Sequence record: PV730302.1
Reading direction: 5' to 3' (one strand)
Source of the DNA: a phage
Length of the DNA stretch: 64,000 bases
Below the pieces are notes generated by a model. That model did no database searches and was not told the DNA's origin. It worked only from the letters and a program-made list of their open reading frames with translations. The translations under genes were made by a program, and so were the position numbers. Each line of letters starts with the position of its first letter. Within the stretch, counting starts at the first letter, position 1. This document shows positions 4,383-63,171 of the stretch, piece by piece.

Positions 4383-4581
4383 TTATAATTTCAACATCAG
4401 CCCAATGCCCATAACCCGGCAGACGGTCTTCAATAGATAATCCGCCATCAGATTTCAGCATTTTAATTGTCATGATATAAGGGTCTAAATGGTCTGCCGT
4501 ATGAGGAGAAACATCAGTCACACGATAAGTCACTTCGACCATTTCCGTACCTAATAATTTCTGAATCAATTTCTTAAACAT
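4366..4581 (-). CDS. Hypothetical protein (71 aa)
   Basis: ORF on the early strand, tightly packed with neighbours. Confidence 0.35.
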   Translation of the reverse strand: MFKKLIQKLLGTEMVEVTYRVTDVSPHTADHLDPYIMTIKMLKSDGGLSIEDRLPGYGHWADVEIISVKDV

Positions 4582-4582
4582 A

Positions 4583-4777
4583 TTATCCTCGCTTTAAACA
4601 TTTGATTACAGACAGTTCACCACCCATGCGAACGTCTTCAGTTCCATCGACCCATAAGACGGTGTAGGCTTCTTTAATAGTATCATTACCTAATTTAAAA
4701 GCAGGTAGAACCTTGGAAATCATTCCGGGAATACCTACACCTTTTAACTGAACCGTTTGCGATAAGAATAATTTCAT
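4583..4777 (-). CDS. Hypothetical protein (64 aa)
   Basis: ORF on the early strand, abuts neighbours. Confidence 0.35.
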   Translation of the reverse strand: MKLFLSQTVQLKGVGIPGMISKVLPAFKLGNDTIKEAYTVLWVDGTEDVRMGGELSVIKCLKRG

Positions 4778-4778
4778 G

Positions 4779-5087
4779 TTAGCCTCGGTATTTCATTTGG
4801 AAGCAATGCTGCTCGTTACATTCAATAAAGAACTTGCGGTCTGCAGCAGAAATAATAATTCGTTCGTCTTGACGGGCGTCCGTTTTGATAGATTTCATAT
4901 CATAAGACACTTTATCATACGGTATATAGATTTTATACACGTCGCCATTCTGGGCGAAATCAACACGGAATAGCTCTAGACCTATTAAATCAGTTACAAG
5001 ACTGTTTATAGCATAGAACCCGTCAAGCTGACTAGTAGGCAAACAGTACCATTTACCTTCAATAAACTCTAACATAATTAACCTCAA
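4779..5087 (-). CDS. Hypothetical protein; C-terminus ...HCFQMKYRG
   Basis: ORF track; start uncertain. Confidence 0.35.
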   Translation of the reverse strand: MRLIMLEFIEGKWYCLPTSQLDGFYAINSLVTDLIGLELFRVDFAQNGDVYKIYIPYDKVSYDMKSIKTDARQDERIIISAADRKFFIECNEQHCFQMKYRG

Positions 5088-5371
5088 TATCTCATCTGAA
5101 AGCCGTGTGATTTAACATTACCACCATAGATGTCAGAGGTATTGACTTCACGGGCGACACTTGGGTCGATATTGATATCATGGTTGAGCTTAGTGATTGC
5201 TAGGGTATCACGACCATTAACAGTACGGAATTCTACAGGGCATACAACATCGGCATAAGCCTTAATAGATTCACGAGTAGGTTGTTTGTCGGCAGGAACG
5301 TCTTTACCTGCTTTAGAGAAAACAACTTCACAGAAATTTTTACGAGTATCAAAATAAGTGGTCATAAACAT
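5084..5371 (-). CDS. Hypothetical protein; C-terminus ...HGFQMRY
   Basis: ORF track 5084..5404; start moved to ATG 5371 (MFMTTYF) with SD GAGGA 8 nt upstream; the longer N-terminus would span a tetraloop hairpin. Confidence 0.4.
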   Translation of the reverse strand: MFMTTYFDTRKNFCEVVFSKAGKDVPADKQPTRESIKAYADVVCPVEFRTVNGRDTLAITKLNHDINIDPSVAREVNTSDIYGGNVKSHGFQMRY

Positions 5372-5386
5372 AATATTTTCCTCAAA

Positions 5387-5402
5387 GGAGGCCGAAGCCT
5401 CC
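5387..5402 (-). other. CUUCGG-tetraloop hairpin (ggaggccgaagcctcc)
   Basis: Perfect 6-bp stem with UUCG loop in minus-strand sense, located between ORFs. Confidence 0.5.
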
Positions 5403-5412
5403 ATTTTTAAGA

Positions 5413-5778
5413 TTAGATATCGAATTCGTTCAGAACTACATCAAAGATTGCTTCCAGGTGTTCAGGTTTAGCTCGGTTGCTCAGGATGTGACGAATCCAA
5501 GTTTTAACCAGAAGCTTACGATTAACACCGTTCCAGCAAGGATGGGTACCTAAATCACGTTGACGGAAATCGTCATCTAAAGCGATTTTAAAAGTAGAAC
5601 CTTCCATTGTGATTGAAACCGTAATACCATTTTCAAAGCGCATATAAACGTAGTTAGGAGTCATGCACTGTTCGATTTCGCACACGGTGCCGTTGTTGTG
5701 TTTCCACAGGCAAATAACTTCAGAAGAACCAGCGATACCGTTAGAAACATATTTACGTTCGAAGTTGATGTAGTTCAT
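5413..5778 (-). CDS. Hypothetical protein (121 aa)
   Basis: ORF track; preceded by a conserved promoter/leader cassette. Confidence 0.45.
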   Translation of the reverse strand: MNYINFERKYVSNGIAGSSEVICLWKHNNGTVCEIEQCMTPNYVYMRFENGITVSITMEGSTFKIALDDDFRQRDLGTHPCWNGVNRKLLVKTWIRHILSNRAKPEHLEAIFDVVLNEFDI

Positions 5779-5850
5779 TTTATTCTCCAGTTTGTTTTCG
5801 TATTATTTGGTACAGGTCTATAATAACACAACCTGTACCAAAGTAAACTG
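5779..5850 (-). promoter_or_regulatory. Early-type promoter plus conserved 36-nt 5' leader (copy 1)
   Basis: Minus sense GTTTAC-17 nt-TATTAT, then leader tgtaccaaataatacgaaaacaaactggagaataaaATG; 9-bp inverted repeat ggtacaggt/acctgtacc flanks the -10. Confidence 0.45.
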
Positions 5851-5852
5851 TT

Positions 5853-6221
5853 TTATGCAACTTTAATCCAATTATCTAAATTTAATTCACCTTTAGCTTT
5901 CATTTTTTCAATCAACTCATCAGCAGTAGTGCGACCATTTTGATACCATGTAACATCTTCAGAATAACCAGTTTCTTCATCTTCATAAGTCTTACAACGA
6001 ATCTTACCAAGAATCAAAGTTTTCAGTTCGTAGGTATCACCGGTAAAAAAGTTTGTTACTATAATTTTCCAAGAGAAGTCATCAGAAGGACCTTCCGGAG
6101 TCATGCAACCTACAAATTCAAATTGTTCTTTGTACAAGTGCCATTGCATTTCTTTGGTTTCGATAGCTTTATAACCGTCGTGGTCTTTACCTTTGATGTA
6201 TGAGTTAAGATTGATTTTCAT
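5853..6221 (-). CDS. Hypothetical protein (122 aa)
   Basis: ORF track; same leader cassette upstream as the 5413..5778 gene. Confidence 0.45.
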   Translation of the reverse strand: MKINLNSYIKGKDHDGYKAIETKEMQWHLYKEQFEFVGCMTPEGPSDDFSWKIIVTNFFTGDTYELKTLILGKIRCKTYEDEETGYSEDVTWYQNGRTTADELIEKMKAKGELNLDNWIKVA

Positions 6222-6300
6222 TTTATTCTCCAGTTTGTTTTCGTATTATTTGGTACATGTCTATAGTATCATGCCTACCGGAGATGTACACCCTTTTTTT
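6222..6300 (-). promoter_or_regulatory. Early-type promoter plus conserved 36-nt 5' leader (copy 2)
   Basis: Identical 39 nt (including ATG) to 5776..5814; upstream GTGTAC and TACTAT elements. Confidence 0.45.
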
Positions 6301-6304
6301 AAAG

Positions 6305-6338
6305 ATTTAGAAACAAAAATGGGACTCCGAAGAGTCCC
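6305..6338 (-). terminator. Rho-independent terminator (gggactc-cgaa-gagtccc, then T-run in minus sense)
   Basis: 7-bp perfect stem at 6321..6338 followed on the minus strand by ATTTTTGTTT. Confidence 0.6.
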
Positions 6339-6343
6339 ATAAC

Positions 6344-6505
6344 TTATGCCTGAGGCTTACCAAAGCAAGCAGCATCTGCACGCAATACTGCACGAGCACG
6401 AGCTTGAAGCTTATCAACTACCTGATTGATACGCTTGTTGGACGCACGCTTGTAACCAGCGCGTTTAGAGGTACCGTCAACTACTTTAACTTCTTTCTTA
6501 GCCAT
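6344..6505 (-). CDS. Small basic protein (53 aa; MAKKEVKVVDGTSKRAGYKRASNKRINQ...)
   Basis: Hand-translated ORF below the 60-aa track threshold; preceded by a long leader and followed directly by a terminator. Confidence 0.35.
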   Translation of the reverse strand: MAKKEVKVVDGTSKRAGYKRASNKRINQVVDKLQARARAVLRADAACFGKPQA

Positions 6506-6768
6506 TTTTAAATCTCTTAAATTAGGATGCAGGACTTATTGGCGTTGCCTGCGCAAGCCCTCAAGGGGAACATAGGTTTCGGATATTTAACGACAGGATA
6601 ACCATAAACCTCGTCATCATACCAACCACGACTTAGACAGATAACCTTTTTCTGACGCGTGATAGTACAAAATACATTCAAGAGGTACACCGTAAAACTG
6701 TTGGGGTCTTAAAACTATAATGATTCGCAAATCATTAATCAAACAGTTCGACGGCTCCTCGATTTAAC

Positions 6769-7017
6769 TTACTTCAGGGTAATAATAAAATGACGTACTG
6801 CTTTACGAGCTGCTGAAGCCAAAGGCTTAGCAAATTTCAGTTCATCTTTAGCTTCCAGTTCAGCAGCCAGAGTAGCCTGAGCTGGGTTCAGATGTTTGAA
6901 ATAACGCAGGATTTCCAGTGCTTCGGCTTCAACATCAATAGATGCGCCGTAGTTTTCGTGACCGTTGTTCCAAGCGTTGCGTTGCAGTTCAAGAGCGTGA
7001 TTCAGATGTTTGTTCAT
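6769..7017 (-). CDS. rIII: rIII lysis-inhibition accessory protein
   Basis: 82 aa, same size and position (between 31 and the 30.x ORFs) as T4 rIII. Confidence 0.7.
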   Translation of the reverse strand: MNKHLNHALELQRNAWNNGHENYGASIDVEAEALEILRYFKHLNPAQATLAAELEAKDELKFAKPLASAARKAVRHFIITLK

Positions 7018-7163
7018 TTTAAATTCTCAATTCGAGATAAAGATTGGTGGACACGTTCTTCTGAATTTCACTTCCTTTCGGCAAGTCTCTCAGTTGTAGT
7101 CCACCGCTTAGGATTCTCCGGTTAACTAACTAGTCCGGCAGCCAATCCATATTATTATTTATA

Positions 7164-7487
7164 TCACTTATAAAGACACGGAATAGCTTTATAGTGACAG
7201 GTAACGAATTTTTGTTTAATTTCTTTAGGTTGTTTAATACCTAATGCAACCAACGGATGAGGCACGTTAGCAATCTTACCAACAGGAAGTGGAGTCAAAT
7301 CACCTACTTCACAAAAATCTTCAGGGACATCAGGTCCTACAGAATAAATTTCACAAAGTTCAGGGATTTCACCTTGATGAAGTTTGCCAATAACGATACC
7401 AGATGCAGTAGTTTCTTCATCACCAGCTTGTTTTGGTTCGGAAACGAGAATAACATATTCTCCGACCGCTTTAATAGGAAGTTCCAT
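7164..7487 (-). CDS. 31: gp31 co-chaperonin (GroES analogue for capsid folding)
   Basis: Translation [22 protein letters not shown]...[23 protein letters not shown] matches remembered T4 gp31. Confidence 0.9.
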
Positions 7488-7514
7488 ATTTAATCCATAT
7501 TGTTTTGTTGATAG

Positions 7515-7847: not shown

Positions 7848-8081
7848 TTACCCCAGAATAGTTTTTATAGTGGTTGCATTACGCTCTTTTAGAGCATTTA
7901 AGAGCCTATGGCAATTATCAAGAATAGGTACTGTTTTGTAATTCATGTTGGCATAAACCCACTCAGATTTATAGTACGATTTCCATCGAGAGAAAAAGTA
8001 CTTTTTGTATTCTACTGAATAGGCTACTAAGCTTTCGCCTTTTGAGTTCAGACCTGAAAACTTAACTAGACGAAATTTCAT
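7848..8081 (-). CDS. Hypothetical protein (77 aa)
   Basis: ORF track; abuts the cd stop. Confidence 0.4.
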   Translation of the reverse strand: MKFRLVKFSGLNSKGESLVAYSVEYKKYFFSRWKSYYKSEWVYANMNYKTVPILDNCHRLLNALKERNATTIKTILG

Positions 8082-8626
8082 TATTCACCACAATAGTTTT
8101 GAATTGATTCCCAGTTCAAAGAACGGAGACCTGTACGGTTATACTGGATAACTTCGATGCCTGATTCACGGAGGATATCGTCCCACCCTTCAGGATTTCG
8201 GTCATAGAGCTCAGCATAAACCAATGTTTTAATTCCAGACTGCGCAATAGACTTAGCACAATCCGCGCAAGGAGATAACGTCACGTACATCGTAGCGCCA
8301 TCAATAGAACTTCCGGTACGAGCTGCAAACAAAATAGCATTCAGTTCAGCATGGATTTCATTTTTGGATGACCATGCAGCGTGAGCCATACGGTGTTCTT
8401 TAAGAAGAACAGATTTATGCGACATCCGCGTCGGGTCGTACACGACACGAGTCCAGTCCTGTTCCACTGCGTGGTCACAACAGTTCACACCACCGGACGG
8501 TGAACCGTTATACCCTGTAGAAATAATGCGGCCATTCTTTTCAATAACCGCACCCACTTTCCATGAACAACATTTTGATTCCTGAGAAATCAGATAGGCA
8601 ATCTGAAGATATGTACTTGCTTTCAT
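8081..8626 (-). CDS. cd: dCMP deaminase
   Basis: Zinc-dependent cytidine/dCMP deaminase motifs HAELNAI and SPCADCAK in the translation; position matches T4 cd. Confidence 0.9.
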   Translation of the reverse strand: MKASTYLQIAYLISQESKCCSWKVGAVIEKNGRIISTGYNGSPSGGVNCCDHAVEQDWTRVVYDPTRMSHKSVLLKEHRMAHAAWSSKNEIHAELNAILFAARTGSSIDGATMYVTLSPCADCAKSIAQSGIKTLVYAELYDRNPEGWDDILRESGIEVIQYNRTGLRSLNWESIQNYCGE

Positions 8627-21126: not shown

Positions 21127-21366
21127 TCACGCTTTCTTAGCGATTTTCCAGTCAGCTTTAAATTGGTCAACGTCTGAGTGGTGAATCCAGAAACCCGATG
21201 AGCTACCGTCTTCGTAAAGAGGACAACCATCACACTCATCTTTCCACCCCATTGCACACAAAGCTTGTTCAGCTTTTTCCAGAGCTTCCGGGTTATTACC
21301 TTGGATTGTGAAGTACCATTTGCCTTTAACTTCAGAATCGTTGATTGATTCACGTTGTAATTTCAT
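21127..21366 (-). CDS. Hypothetical Cys-containing small protein (79 aa)
   Basis: ORF track; CxxGW...CDGC pattern. Confidence 0.4.
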   Translation of the reverse strand: MKLQRESINDSEVKGKWYFTIQGNNPEALEKAEQALCAMGWKDECDGCPLYEDGSSSGFWIHHSDVDQFKADWKIAKKA

Positions 21367-21442
21367 TTTATTCTCCGGTGTTTAGTTGTTATCTCAGTAT
21401 GGGGCCATTATATCATAGCCCCATTTGGCTGTACACCACTTT

Positions 21443-22134: not shown

Positions 22135-22168
22135 GTCTATAGTATCATGTTTAAAGCAGATGTAAACA
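22135..22168 (-). promoter_or_regulatory. Early/middle promoter cassette (GTTTACA, TGCTTTA, TACTAT)
   Basis: Minus sense GTTTACAtcTGCTTTAaacatgaTACTATagacc; near-identical copies at 22836..22876, 39705..39736 and elsewhere. Confidence 0.5.
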
Positions 22169-39704: not shown

Positions 39705-39736
39705 CTATAGTATCATGTTTAAAGCGAAAGTAAACT
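39705..39736 (-). promoter_or_regulatory. Early promoter cassette upstream of motA
   Basis: Minus sense GTTTACtttcGCTTTAaacatgaTACTATagacc. Confidence 0.5.
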
Positions 39737-41671: not shown

Positions 41672-41916
41672 TCATTTTTAATAGTCTTAAGTAAACCGAC
41701 AAAAGTAGAAAGAACCCAGCCAATAAGCAGAAAACTTAAGAATATTGGACCAGGGGTCCACACACCTAAAAAGAAGCAAACTGAACAGACTATAGCCATA
41801 ATAAGTTCAATAAAAACTACGATAATCATATTTTCCTCATTAGCGTCCGAAGACGCCTTTAGTTTTAAGATTGTTACGATAGAACTGCATCACATGTTCG
41901 TTATGGAAATTGCTCA

Positions 41917-43053: not shown

Positions 43054-43277
43054 TCATAAAAACGATTGGGAAAATGCTCAATACCAAAAATAACACAAAC
43101 ATGTTCCAAATTGCTTTAAGTAAGTTTTTCATAATCATCTCCATTAGTTGATATGTCTATAATATCATGATTAATGGAGATGTACACTGTTTTATGCCAA
43201 TTTCCACAACAATAAACTAAAACATACACAAATCACTGGGATACAGGTCAACCAAATAAGGCACCACATTTTGCTAC

Positions 43278-44433: not shown

Positions 44434-44623
44434 CGAAATAAGAAATACGAACCTCTAAACAATGAGCATATGCACCCATCGCATCCAGTTGGGCAATCAG
44501 TAACCCTTGTTGACGGATATCAAGAGTTTCAAAAACACCGCCTTTAATAAACTCTTCAAGAGCATTAATTTTCAGGACCAGTTGGTCATATTCTTCAATT
44601 ACACGTGCTTGGAAACCTAACAT
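44426..44623 (-). CDS. Hypothetical protein (65 aa)
   Basis: ORF track. Confidence 0.35.
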   Translation of the reverse strand: MLGFQARVIEEYDQLVLKINALEEFIKGGVFETLDIRQQGLLIAQLDAMGAYAHCLEVRISYFGE

Positions 44624-44635
44624 AATTCCTCATTA

Positions 44636-44651
44636 GGAGGCCGAAGCCTCC
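44636..44651 (-). other. CUUCGG-tetraloop hairpin downstream of rIIB
   Basis: ggaggccgaagcctcc; identical 16-mer to the hairpin at 5387..5402. Confidence 0.5.
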
Positions 44652-44660
44652 GTTATTGAT

Positions 44661-57725: not shown

Positions 57726-57777
57726 ATGACCTCCAGTGATTTAGAGGTCATTATAACATGAAGGGAGGAGGTGTAAA

Positions 57778-58032
57778 CTACTTAAACACACCAAGTGGGA
57801 CGCCAAACACTGCAATGTCAGCAGCCATGCCTAATGAGGATTGGGTATATGAAGTATAGGAGCTTTTTGATTCATACGAGCTTTTTGTTTCTGGCTTCTC
57901 AGCTTCAATCTTAAGAGCTTTCGCCTGAATATTTTTTTGCTCGATTTCCTTACGAGCCTGTTTACGGTCGATATCCAACGCCGATGTAGGTATATTAGTC
58001 AGCCAATTCATTATTTTACCCAAGGAGCCCAT
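57778..58032 (-). CDS. Hypothetical protein with Ser/Tyr-rich segment and C-terminal hydrophobic tail
   Basis: ORF track. Confidence 0.35.
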   Translation of the reverse strand: MGSLGKIMNWLTNIPTSALDIDRKQARKEIEQKNIQAKALKIEAEKPETKSSYESKSSYTSYTQSSLGMAADIAVFGVPLGVFK

Positions 58033-63112: not shown

Positions 63113-63171
63113 AATGTTCTCCTCGGTAGTTGATAGGTCTATAGTATCACTACCATAGACCATTGTAAACT

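Follow-up and report, generated by a model that had tools for sequence, protein, structure and literature searches.

The stretch of DNA analysed here (hereafter the window) comprises 64,000 nt of a phage genome (sequence record PV730302.1), and this report deals with two adjacent genes on its minus strand, 30.8 and 30.7, which carry the same leader sequence in front of their start codons. A megablast search with positions 4500-7500 matched 802 T4-like phage records. The top matches were the Dhakavirus phages QL01, WG01 and PSD9 (96-99% identity, with full query coverage in none), and, judged by this comparison, the window is that of a JS98-like Dhakavirus, a relative of T4. Gene names were assigned from annotated relatives and Pfam. 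The central features of the locus are the following:

5853-6221, minus strand: gene 30.8, 122-aa allele (PF06019), the variable module between both repeats
5413-5778, minus strand: gene 30.7, 121 aa (PF06919)
6217-6271, minus strand: repeat copy A (55 nt), ahead of 30.8, 52/55 identical to copy B
5774-5828, minus strand: repeat copy B (55 nt), ahead of 30.7, 52/55 identical to copy A
6263-6291, minus strand: putative early promoter A (P30.8), with -35 GTGTAC at 6291-6286, N17, TGa at 6271-6269 and -10 TACTAT at 6268-6263
5820-5848, minus strand: putative early promoter B (P30.7), with -35 GTTTAC at 5848-5843, N17 ending in TGt and -10 TATTAT at 5825-5820

The preliminary description of this DNA had reported that the 39 nt ending in the start codon are identical upstream of the 121-aa and 122-aa open reading frames (ORFs). 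This was borne out by the analysis, since the 39-mer TGTACCAAATAATACGAAAACAAACTGGAGAATAAAATG has exactly two copies, at 5776-5814 and 6219-6257 of the minus strand, and no further copy was found in the window at up to 3 mismatches. Self-comparison of the sequence placed the repeat boundaries further apart, with 52/55 identity over 55 nt from the extended -10 to ATGAA (repeat family D10). The repeat contains the TGn, the -10 hexamer, the discriminator, the whole predicted 35-nt 5' untranslated region (5'UTR) and ATGAA. The two copies are direct repeats that flank 30.8 and lie 443 bp apart.

We have compared the length of the identical run ending at ATG among 4278 minus-strand gene-start pairs. 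The 30.7/30.8 pair shared 39 nt, with 16 nt for the runner-up and 13 nt for the 99.9th percentile, and the 39-mer had 0 matches in 100 shuffles. The identity is thus not simply a common Shine-Dalgarno (SD)-proximal motif, the outcome against which the preliminary description had cautioned. A shorter element, GGAGAATAAAATG, does occur a third time (21364-21376, minus strand, ahead of a 79-aa ORF at 21127-21366), and one-mismatch variants of it precede five more early genes, which would speak for a repeat that is a generic SD-proximal motif, a chance match or an assembly artefact. Such an explanation is refuted by the shuffles, by the gene-start pair statistics and by the presence of the two-copy arrangement in at least 26 independently sequenced phage records, and its probability is negligible.

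Each copy is preceded by its own GTTTAC/GTGTAC and TATTAT/TACTAT elements, just as previously described, with N17 spacers and a TGn in both cases. The two sites belong to a group of ~25 minus-strand sites that share GTTTAC-N17-(TGn)TAnnAT-AGACCTATCAAC...GAGGA...ATG. This pattern agrees with the published description of T4 early promoters, which comprises UP, -35, TGn and -10 elements with extra conserved positions, and the logos of T4-like early promoters place the -10 element at -12..-7, with a -35 consensus resembling GTTTAC, a conserved A at -11 and a conserved T at -7. In their sequence, both sites have the -35, the 17-nt spacer, the TGn and the -10 with A-11 and T-7 of a T4-type early promoter. 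Since the -10 was placed at -12..-7 as in these logos, transcription is predicted to start at G6256 for 30.8 and at G5813 for 30.7. The exact identity of both leaders starts at position -1 relative to these predicted starts, and the predicted 5'UTRs of the two mRNAs are identical, 35 nt long and A-rich (the leader is 54% A). Each repeat copy is made of the downstream half of a T4-type early promoter plus the 35-nt 5'UTR. P30.7 starts 4 nt past the 30.8 stop codon, it has no upstream terminator of its own, and upstream of its -35 comes the 3' end of the 30.8 coding sequence, which is A/T-rich. No promoter is annotated for this region in the T4 GenBank and RefSeq records. Elsewhere in the window, ~14 minus-strand promoters (e.g. 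22139-22167, 43159-43187 and 63141-63170) have their first ~15 transcribed nt conserved as AGACCTATCAACTAA, so many early mRNAs would start nearly alike; the 30.7/30.8 leader begins with the variant AGACCTGTACCAAATAA of this start.

Comparison with other phages separated the identity into two layers. In T4 and VR7 (Gaprivervirus), 30.8 and 30.7 occupy the same places, and an early promoter of its own precedes each of them; their leaders have only (ACT)GGAGAATAAAATGAA in common. This sequence, which contains the SD and a box for the endoribonuclease RegB, is present ahead of 30.8 and of 30.7 in T4, in VR7 and in most Dhakavirus genomes, and its occurrence at both genes in T4 and VR7 indicates that it is old and conserved for both. 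The remaining 26 nt, from the transcription start to the box, are common to both genes only in Dhakavirus-like genomes, and not in T4 or VR7. At the sequence level, the long identity is hence composed of a lineage-specific 26-nt 5' part and a conserved 13-nt 3' SD/RegB part. A 49-nt query reaching from the -10 to ATGAA (the 39-mer with 8 nt upstream and 2 nt downstream) was found in 46 of 50,697 phage records, with up to 2 copies per genome. An exact 39-mer scan of the IMG/VR viral contigs returned the same known isolates only, with no new gene context.

This distribution bears on a further proposal of the preliminary description, namely that a cassette was recently duplicated and brought new genes under common control. 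Neither gene is new, given their positions and own promoters in T4 and VR7. What can be retained is that the long identity is lineage-specific, as a secondary recombination or conversion event would leave it. The Dhakavirus leader aligns to the VR7 30.7 leader with small indels, and pairing of its first 12 nt is possible with the spacer of P30.7 and not with that of P30.8. Because of both features, 30.7 appears as the donor, and we infer that, in the Dhakavirus-like lineage, the leader of 30.8 was overwritten by that of 30.7. Across the genomes, copies A and B showed no co-varying substitutions of the kind that concerted evolution would produce. The variants seen were in single copies, with a G to T change in copy A of QL01 and WG01, and a replaced SD in copy B of PSD9 and VR5. 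The 30.7 leader of these last two phages (loci L002 and L019, respectively) changes after ...AAACAAAC(T) to the SD AAAGGATAATAAAATG, and the first third of their 30.7 coding sequence is a divergent allele; together, the two changes point to a recombination breakpoint within the leader itself.

The two proteins had been described as not obviously similar, and we could not detect any homology between them with BLASTP (E = 0.033 over 28 aa), Pfam, PHROGs (in both of which they fall into separate families) or hhalign (probability 0.2%). These results led us to reject 30.7 and 30.8 as paralogues. An ancient tandem duplication, with diverged paralogues keeping a common upstream region, would agree with their similar lengths and with the CMTP tetrapeptide present in both (residues 38-41 and 39-42). 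However, the T4-type 30.8 allele and several 30.7 proteins lack this tetrapeptide, and the upstream regions are more alike than the coding sequences in one lineage only, the opposite of what an old duplication predicts. Paralogy is thus effectively refuted at the sequence level, and we assign it a very low probability.

We have also considered whether the leader could act as an RNA element. In RNA structure prediction, the 39-mer had a minimum free energy (MFE) of 0, and the leaders with 30 nt of coding sequence had values of -1.2 and -0.9 kcal/mol, being less stable than 197-198 of 200 shuffles. A structured leader element was therefore not supported. An Rfam covariance-model scan of positions 4500-7500 on both strands gave 0 matches at E <= 1. 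The unstructured leader and the negative Rfam result argue against a structured riboregulator, and the folding model fits a leader that would be open and efficiently translated. The RegA consensus obtained by SELEX is AAAAUUGUUAUGUAA. It had no match at either leader at up to 3 mismatches, so that the proposed RegA-like translational repressor site was not found there.

These results make it unlikely that all 39 nt of the leader form a dedicated cis-regulatory RNA (a repressor operator, a small-RNA target or a riboswitch-like element) selected for co-regulation of 30.7 and 30.8, even if the identity does run from no more than 1 nt off the predicted transcription start to the ATG, and 38 database records, Mosigvirus JM10 included, show the leader with 100% conservation. 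The identity among these records reflects close kinship, as their flanks are also 98-100% identical, and in T4, VR7 and the metagenomic relative L010 the same genes have other leaders that differ in the 26-nt 5' part. Of the shared post-transcriptional element postulated in the preliminary description, the RNase site remains, and for the 3' 11-13 nt only. The 5' 26 nt are unstructured, unconserved outside the Dhakavirus-like lineage, Rfam-negative and unlike RegA sites.

The RNase in question would be RegB, which acts with ribosomal protein S1 on an 11-nt single-stranded target of consensus GG*AGRAYARAA and optimum GGAGAAUAAAA; grafting AAUAAAA after a resistant GGAG gave efficient RegB cleavage in vitro and in vivo (Durand et al. 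2006, PMC1702504). The target has an invariant GGA, a G at position 4 and an A-rich 3' part in which positions 5, 6 and 9 are not C (PMC1702504; PMC3014915), and early mRNAs are inactivated by a RegB cut within the SD (Uzan and Miller 2010, PMC3014915). In both leaders, the last 11 nt are this optimum, end at the A of AUG and double as the SD sequence:

6221-6231, minus strand: GGAGAATAAAA, SD of 30.8, exact optimum RegB/S1 target, with the predicted cut between G6230 and A6229
5778-5788, minus strand: GGAGAATAAAA, SD of 30.7, exact optimum RegB/S1 target, by consensus match

The RegB consensus has 4 matches in the window (0.33 expected), 3 of them being the exact optimum. All 4 directly precede the ATG of minus-strand genes with early promoters, two of them as the SDs of 30.7 and 30.8. 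In promoter-initiated leaders, the RegB site is predicted to be unpaired or marginally paired, with the 30.7 MFE structure pairing GGAG in a helix of -1.2 kcal/mol in total. The type Dhakavirus, JS98, has a regB gene whose product shares 59% identity with the RegB of T4 (E = 1e-62). The two sites therefore resemble those of T4 in the exact 11-nt optimum, in the SD role, in their predicted single-strandedness and in their location in an initiation region behind an early promoter, and they differ in being known from sequence and in facing a RegB of this degree of identity. We infer that RegB would cleave the 30.7 and 30.8 leaders, and both genes are thereby predicted to be immediate-early and RegB-controlled. 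The gene rIII lies two genes upstream of both perfect RegB sites. As far as the accessible part of a 2022 paper (PMC9409239) goes, T4 RIII binds S1 and inhibits RegB activation.

As seen in the alignments, the repeats also bound a swappable gene slot, which the preliminary description had missed. Between the window and QL01, 30.9, the terminator, promoter A and repeat A are 98-100% identical, and repeat B and 30.7 are 98.6-100% identical, with only 56.5% identity in the 30.8 coding sequence. The latter is 93.4% identical between the window and VR7, for which repeat A is at 60%, repeat B at 88.5% and 30.7 at 87.0%. Two 30.8 alleles could be distinguished, a T4-type of 110 aa and a VR7-type of 122 aa, whose proteins are 43-44% identical, and both are present within Dhakavirus. 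One breakpoint of the swap directly follows ATGAA(AA), and the other falls in the -35/spacer of P30.7.

Further states of the slot were found with a synthetic "deletion junction" query. In Mosigvirus JM10, 30.8 is absent and a single cassette is present, with a P30.8-like upstream half joined to the identical -10 and leader and a near-identical 30.7, which is the arrangement that a deletion between the cassettes would leave. Dhakavirus C6 (L020, 799-1155) has an extra 118-aa ORF with its own UUCG-loop terminator between the 30.9 terminator and the P30.8 A-tract; this ORF has a proline-rich N-terminus and belongs to phrog_17531. The sequenced phages thus display four slot states, namely two alleles, an empty slot and an extra ORF. 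At another locus of the window (21364-21436, minus strand), the promoter-leader CCATACTGAG...AAACACCGGAGAATAAAATGAAA resembles the VR7 cassette ahead of 30.8, and this likeness suggests that cassettes may move between genes. Exact runs were also seen between other cassettes of different genes, one of 30 nt in the window (39707-39735 vs 22139-22167) and one of 31 nt in T4 (GTGGTACTATACAACTATCAACTACTGATAC, ~167086 vs 163673, promoters in locus L022), which indicates that long inter-cassette identity is a general feature.

Such an organisation recalls the promoter-early stem-loops (PeSLs) of T4-type phages, described as "mobile regulatory cassettes" and composed of a terminator stem-loop, an A/T-rich region, an early promoter, an SD and an ATG (PMC2839356; PMC4122927). 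They cluster in hyperplastic regions, where inter-PeSL recombination deletes, inserts and swaps ORFs (Arbiol et al. 2010, PMC2839356; Comeau et al. 2014, PMC4122927). They have been reported for RB49/phi1, T4/PST and KVP40/nt-1, also as "half" or degraded forms; experiments placed the crossovers of PeSL mini-circles between the -10 and the ATG, and patches of less than 50 bp are homology enough for recombination in T4 (PMC2839356; PMC4122927). Upstream of copy A, we have found the two elements that complete such a cassette:

6309-6340, minus strand: intrinsic terminator after 30.9, with stem ATGGGACTC/GAGTCCCAT (9 bp, 5 GC pairs) and TTCG loop, followed by the T-run TTTTGTTTCT; its stem part, 6340-6319, and the T-run are the "stem-loop" part of cassette A
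6292-6308, minus strand: UP-like, A/T-rich stretch of promoter A with an A7 tract at 6294-6300

The order of the elements is the same as in the PeSLs, and so is the setting, a hyperplastic region among small non-essential ORFs. The breakpoints of replacement, deletion and insertion (the 30.8 swap, JM10 and C6, respectively) coincide with the cassettes, and the segment that is identical here, from the -10 to the ATG, is the zone of the mapped mini-circle crossovers. Copy A has every sequence feature of a PeSL, whereas copy B has a promoter-overlapping inverted repeat in place of the stem-loop. Other differences are the unusual length of the identity, its location, which is the transcribed leader and not the stem-loop or A/T-rich part, and, as far as the accessible text of the PeSL papers goes, the genus (Dhakavirus) and the locus (30.9-30.7). 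On sequence criteria, the Dhakavirus 30.8 slot is a fresh example of a kind of element already known.

A second comparison is offered by the T-even internal-protein (IP) locus. The conserved IP segment reaches into the coding sequence (the capsid-targeting peptide), whereas the identity at the 30.8 slot stops after ATGAA. ORF exchange at the IP locus was attributed to shuffling (Repoila et al. 1994, as reported in Comeau et al. 2014, PMC4122927). To the extent that this secondary account describes it, unrelated small ORFs are swapped there between related phages, as they are here. The T4 ipII promoter, too, has a 14-bp inverted repeat at its -10.

Taken together, these data led us to favour, with a probability of roughly 80%, a reading in which the region consists of two tandem T4-type early cassettes of the PeSL kind, with RegB-sensitive SDs, a leader conversion and a shuffled 30.8 slot. 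Host RNA polymerase would start at G6256 and G5813 immediately after infection, and the two mRNAs would carry identical 35-nt, A-rich, unstructured 5'UTRs ending in GGAGAAUAAAA. This would allow a strong immediate-early burst of the 30.8 and 30.7 proteins, after which RegB with S1 would cut inside the SD and inactivate both mRNAs. In the Dhakavirus-like lineage, the 30.7 leader would have replaced the 30.8 leader by recombination or gene conversion, in an exchange anchored on the -10/+1 consensus (TATAGAC) on one side and on the SD/RegB box (ACT)GGAGAATAAAATGAA on the other, both of which are old and common to the promoter family. The repeats and the neighbouring promoter sequences would act as portable homology, between co-infecting phages or within one genome, and recombination at them could yield allele replacement, deletion or the insertion of whole self-expressing gene modules.

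Several points weigh against this reading. Copy B lacks the upstream terminator stem-loop of a canonical PeSL. The direction of transfer from 30.7 to 30.8 rests on few genomes, and the 30.8 leader of the metagenomic relative L010 also begins with TGTACCA, so that part of the leader similarity may be older. The single cassette of JM10 may be ancestral rather than the product of a deletion. Both the transcription starts and the RegB cleavage are deduced from the sequence; regB lies outside the 64-kb window, and RegB was checked in the relative JS98 only. In the Dhakavirus-like phages PSD9 and VR5, the 30.7 leader has no GGAG, meaning that the RegB box is not obligatory.

If the two cassettes do work as outlined, the locus would be a clean natural example of how T4-like phages swap small early genes with expression undisturbed, since each module brings its own promoter, leader and RegB-sensitive SD, which also supply the recombination homology. 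As the slot breakpoints can be placed within a few tens of nt or less, the PeSL model becomes testable in easily grown coliphages. Some of the small early genes, we suspect, may serve in host takeover or anti-defence. Repeats of this type can cause deletions or mis-assemblies in Dhakavirus phages that are engineered or used in therapy.

The inverted repeat mentioned above for copy B, ahead of the 121-aa gene, had been noticed before as a 9-bp repeat around the -10. It is present, with a length of 12 bp:

5842-5831 (TTTGGTACAGGT) and 5817-5806 (ACCTGTACCAAA), minus strand: 12-bp inverted repeat bracketing the P30.7 -10, able to form a hairpin only in read-through RNA

The repeat is kept in T4 (8 bp) and VR7 (11 bp). 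We have counted such inverted repeats (at least 6 perfect bp between the spacer and the first nt after the -10) at the promoters of the window, of three T4 loci (L027, L024 and L022) and of one VR7 locus (L023), with cross-promoter pairs as the control:

Window: inverted repeats at 8/25 promoters; control, 4% of pairs; permutation p < 2e-4
VR7: inverted repeats at 5/8 promoters; control, 5.4% of pairs; permutation p < 2e-4
T4: inverted repeats at 5/21 promoters; control, 5% of pairs; permutation p 0.004

The inverted-repeat promoters of the window are at 5848, 11766, 21436, 21879, 42444, 51309, 51946 and 63170, all on the minus strand, and those of T4 include motB, ipII (14 bp), 30.7 and 30.8. 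One promoter backbone was observed with three compensating versions of the arms, GGGACCA/TGGTCCC in T4 motB, GGAGCA/TGCTCC in window 11766 and VR7 15763, and TGGGGTCA/TGACCCCA in VR7 45050. Beside the perfect cores, we have counted 11 sense-strand G.U versus 2 A.C positions, several of them at consensus bases, so that this count is weak evidence. Sense and antisense folding energies did not differ significantly over all 40 promoters (p = 0.54). A tendency of inverted-repeat promoters to lack a terminator upstream (8/8 vs 0/5) was judged not significant by estimate, because many promoters without an inverted repeat are also without terminators. No mention of the -10 inverted repeat was found in the reviews and comparative papers searched, the older literature being out of reach.

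In T4, soc, 49 and I-TevI are controlled by a promoter lying inside a hairpin. The same type of control is documented for T4 gene e (Uzan and Miller 2010, PMC3014915). P30.7 shares its geometry, in that an internal promoter starts between the arms and the hairpin can form only in upstream transcripts. In the gene e type of control, however, the promoter is late and the 3' arm sequesters the SD, whereas P30.7 is an early promoter whose 3' arm ends ~18 nt ahead of the SD, with the SD unpaired in the centroid structure of the RNA across P30.7 (-13.8 kcal/mol). We consider it possible, if somewhat doubtful, that the P30.7 inverted repeat exemplifies a module of T4-type early promoters that has gone unrecognised and in which the spacer and start arms form a hairpin in read-through RNA only and so mark polycistronic transcripts or have them processed differently. 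For example, the hairpin would stabilise the 3' end for the upstream gene, attenuate read-through or give nucleases a point of entry. Where genes abut, the inverted repeat may replace the PeSL terminator stem-loop.

The remaining genes around the locus are the following:

8081-8626, minus strand: cd
between cd and gene 31 in listing order, minus strand: 31.2 and 31.1
7164-7487, minus strand: gene 31
6769-7017, minus strand: rIII
6344-6505, minus strand: gene 30.9
next after 30.7, minus strand: gene 30.6

Between rIII and 30.9, an early-promoter-like GTGTAC-N17-TACTAT is present at 6662-6690 (minus strand), with no SD/ATG within 100 nt. For 30.6, the mechanical ORF start at 5404 falls inside a GGAGGC-TTCG-GCCTCC hairpin (5387-5402), and comparison with T4 and VR7 indicates that the true start is probably the ATG at 5371. 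UUCG-loop hairpins directly ahead of an SD were also seen at 41825-41860 and 44619-44654 (repeat family D6). At 57750-57778 and the ~25 nt downstream (minus strand), an early leader can form a GACCTC/GAGGTC pairing that would sequester its own SD, TATAATGACCTCTAAATCACTGGAGGTCATATG, and that, according to this folding, may be a translational control hairpin.

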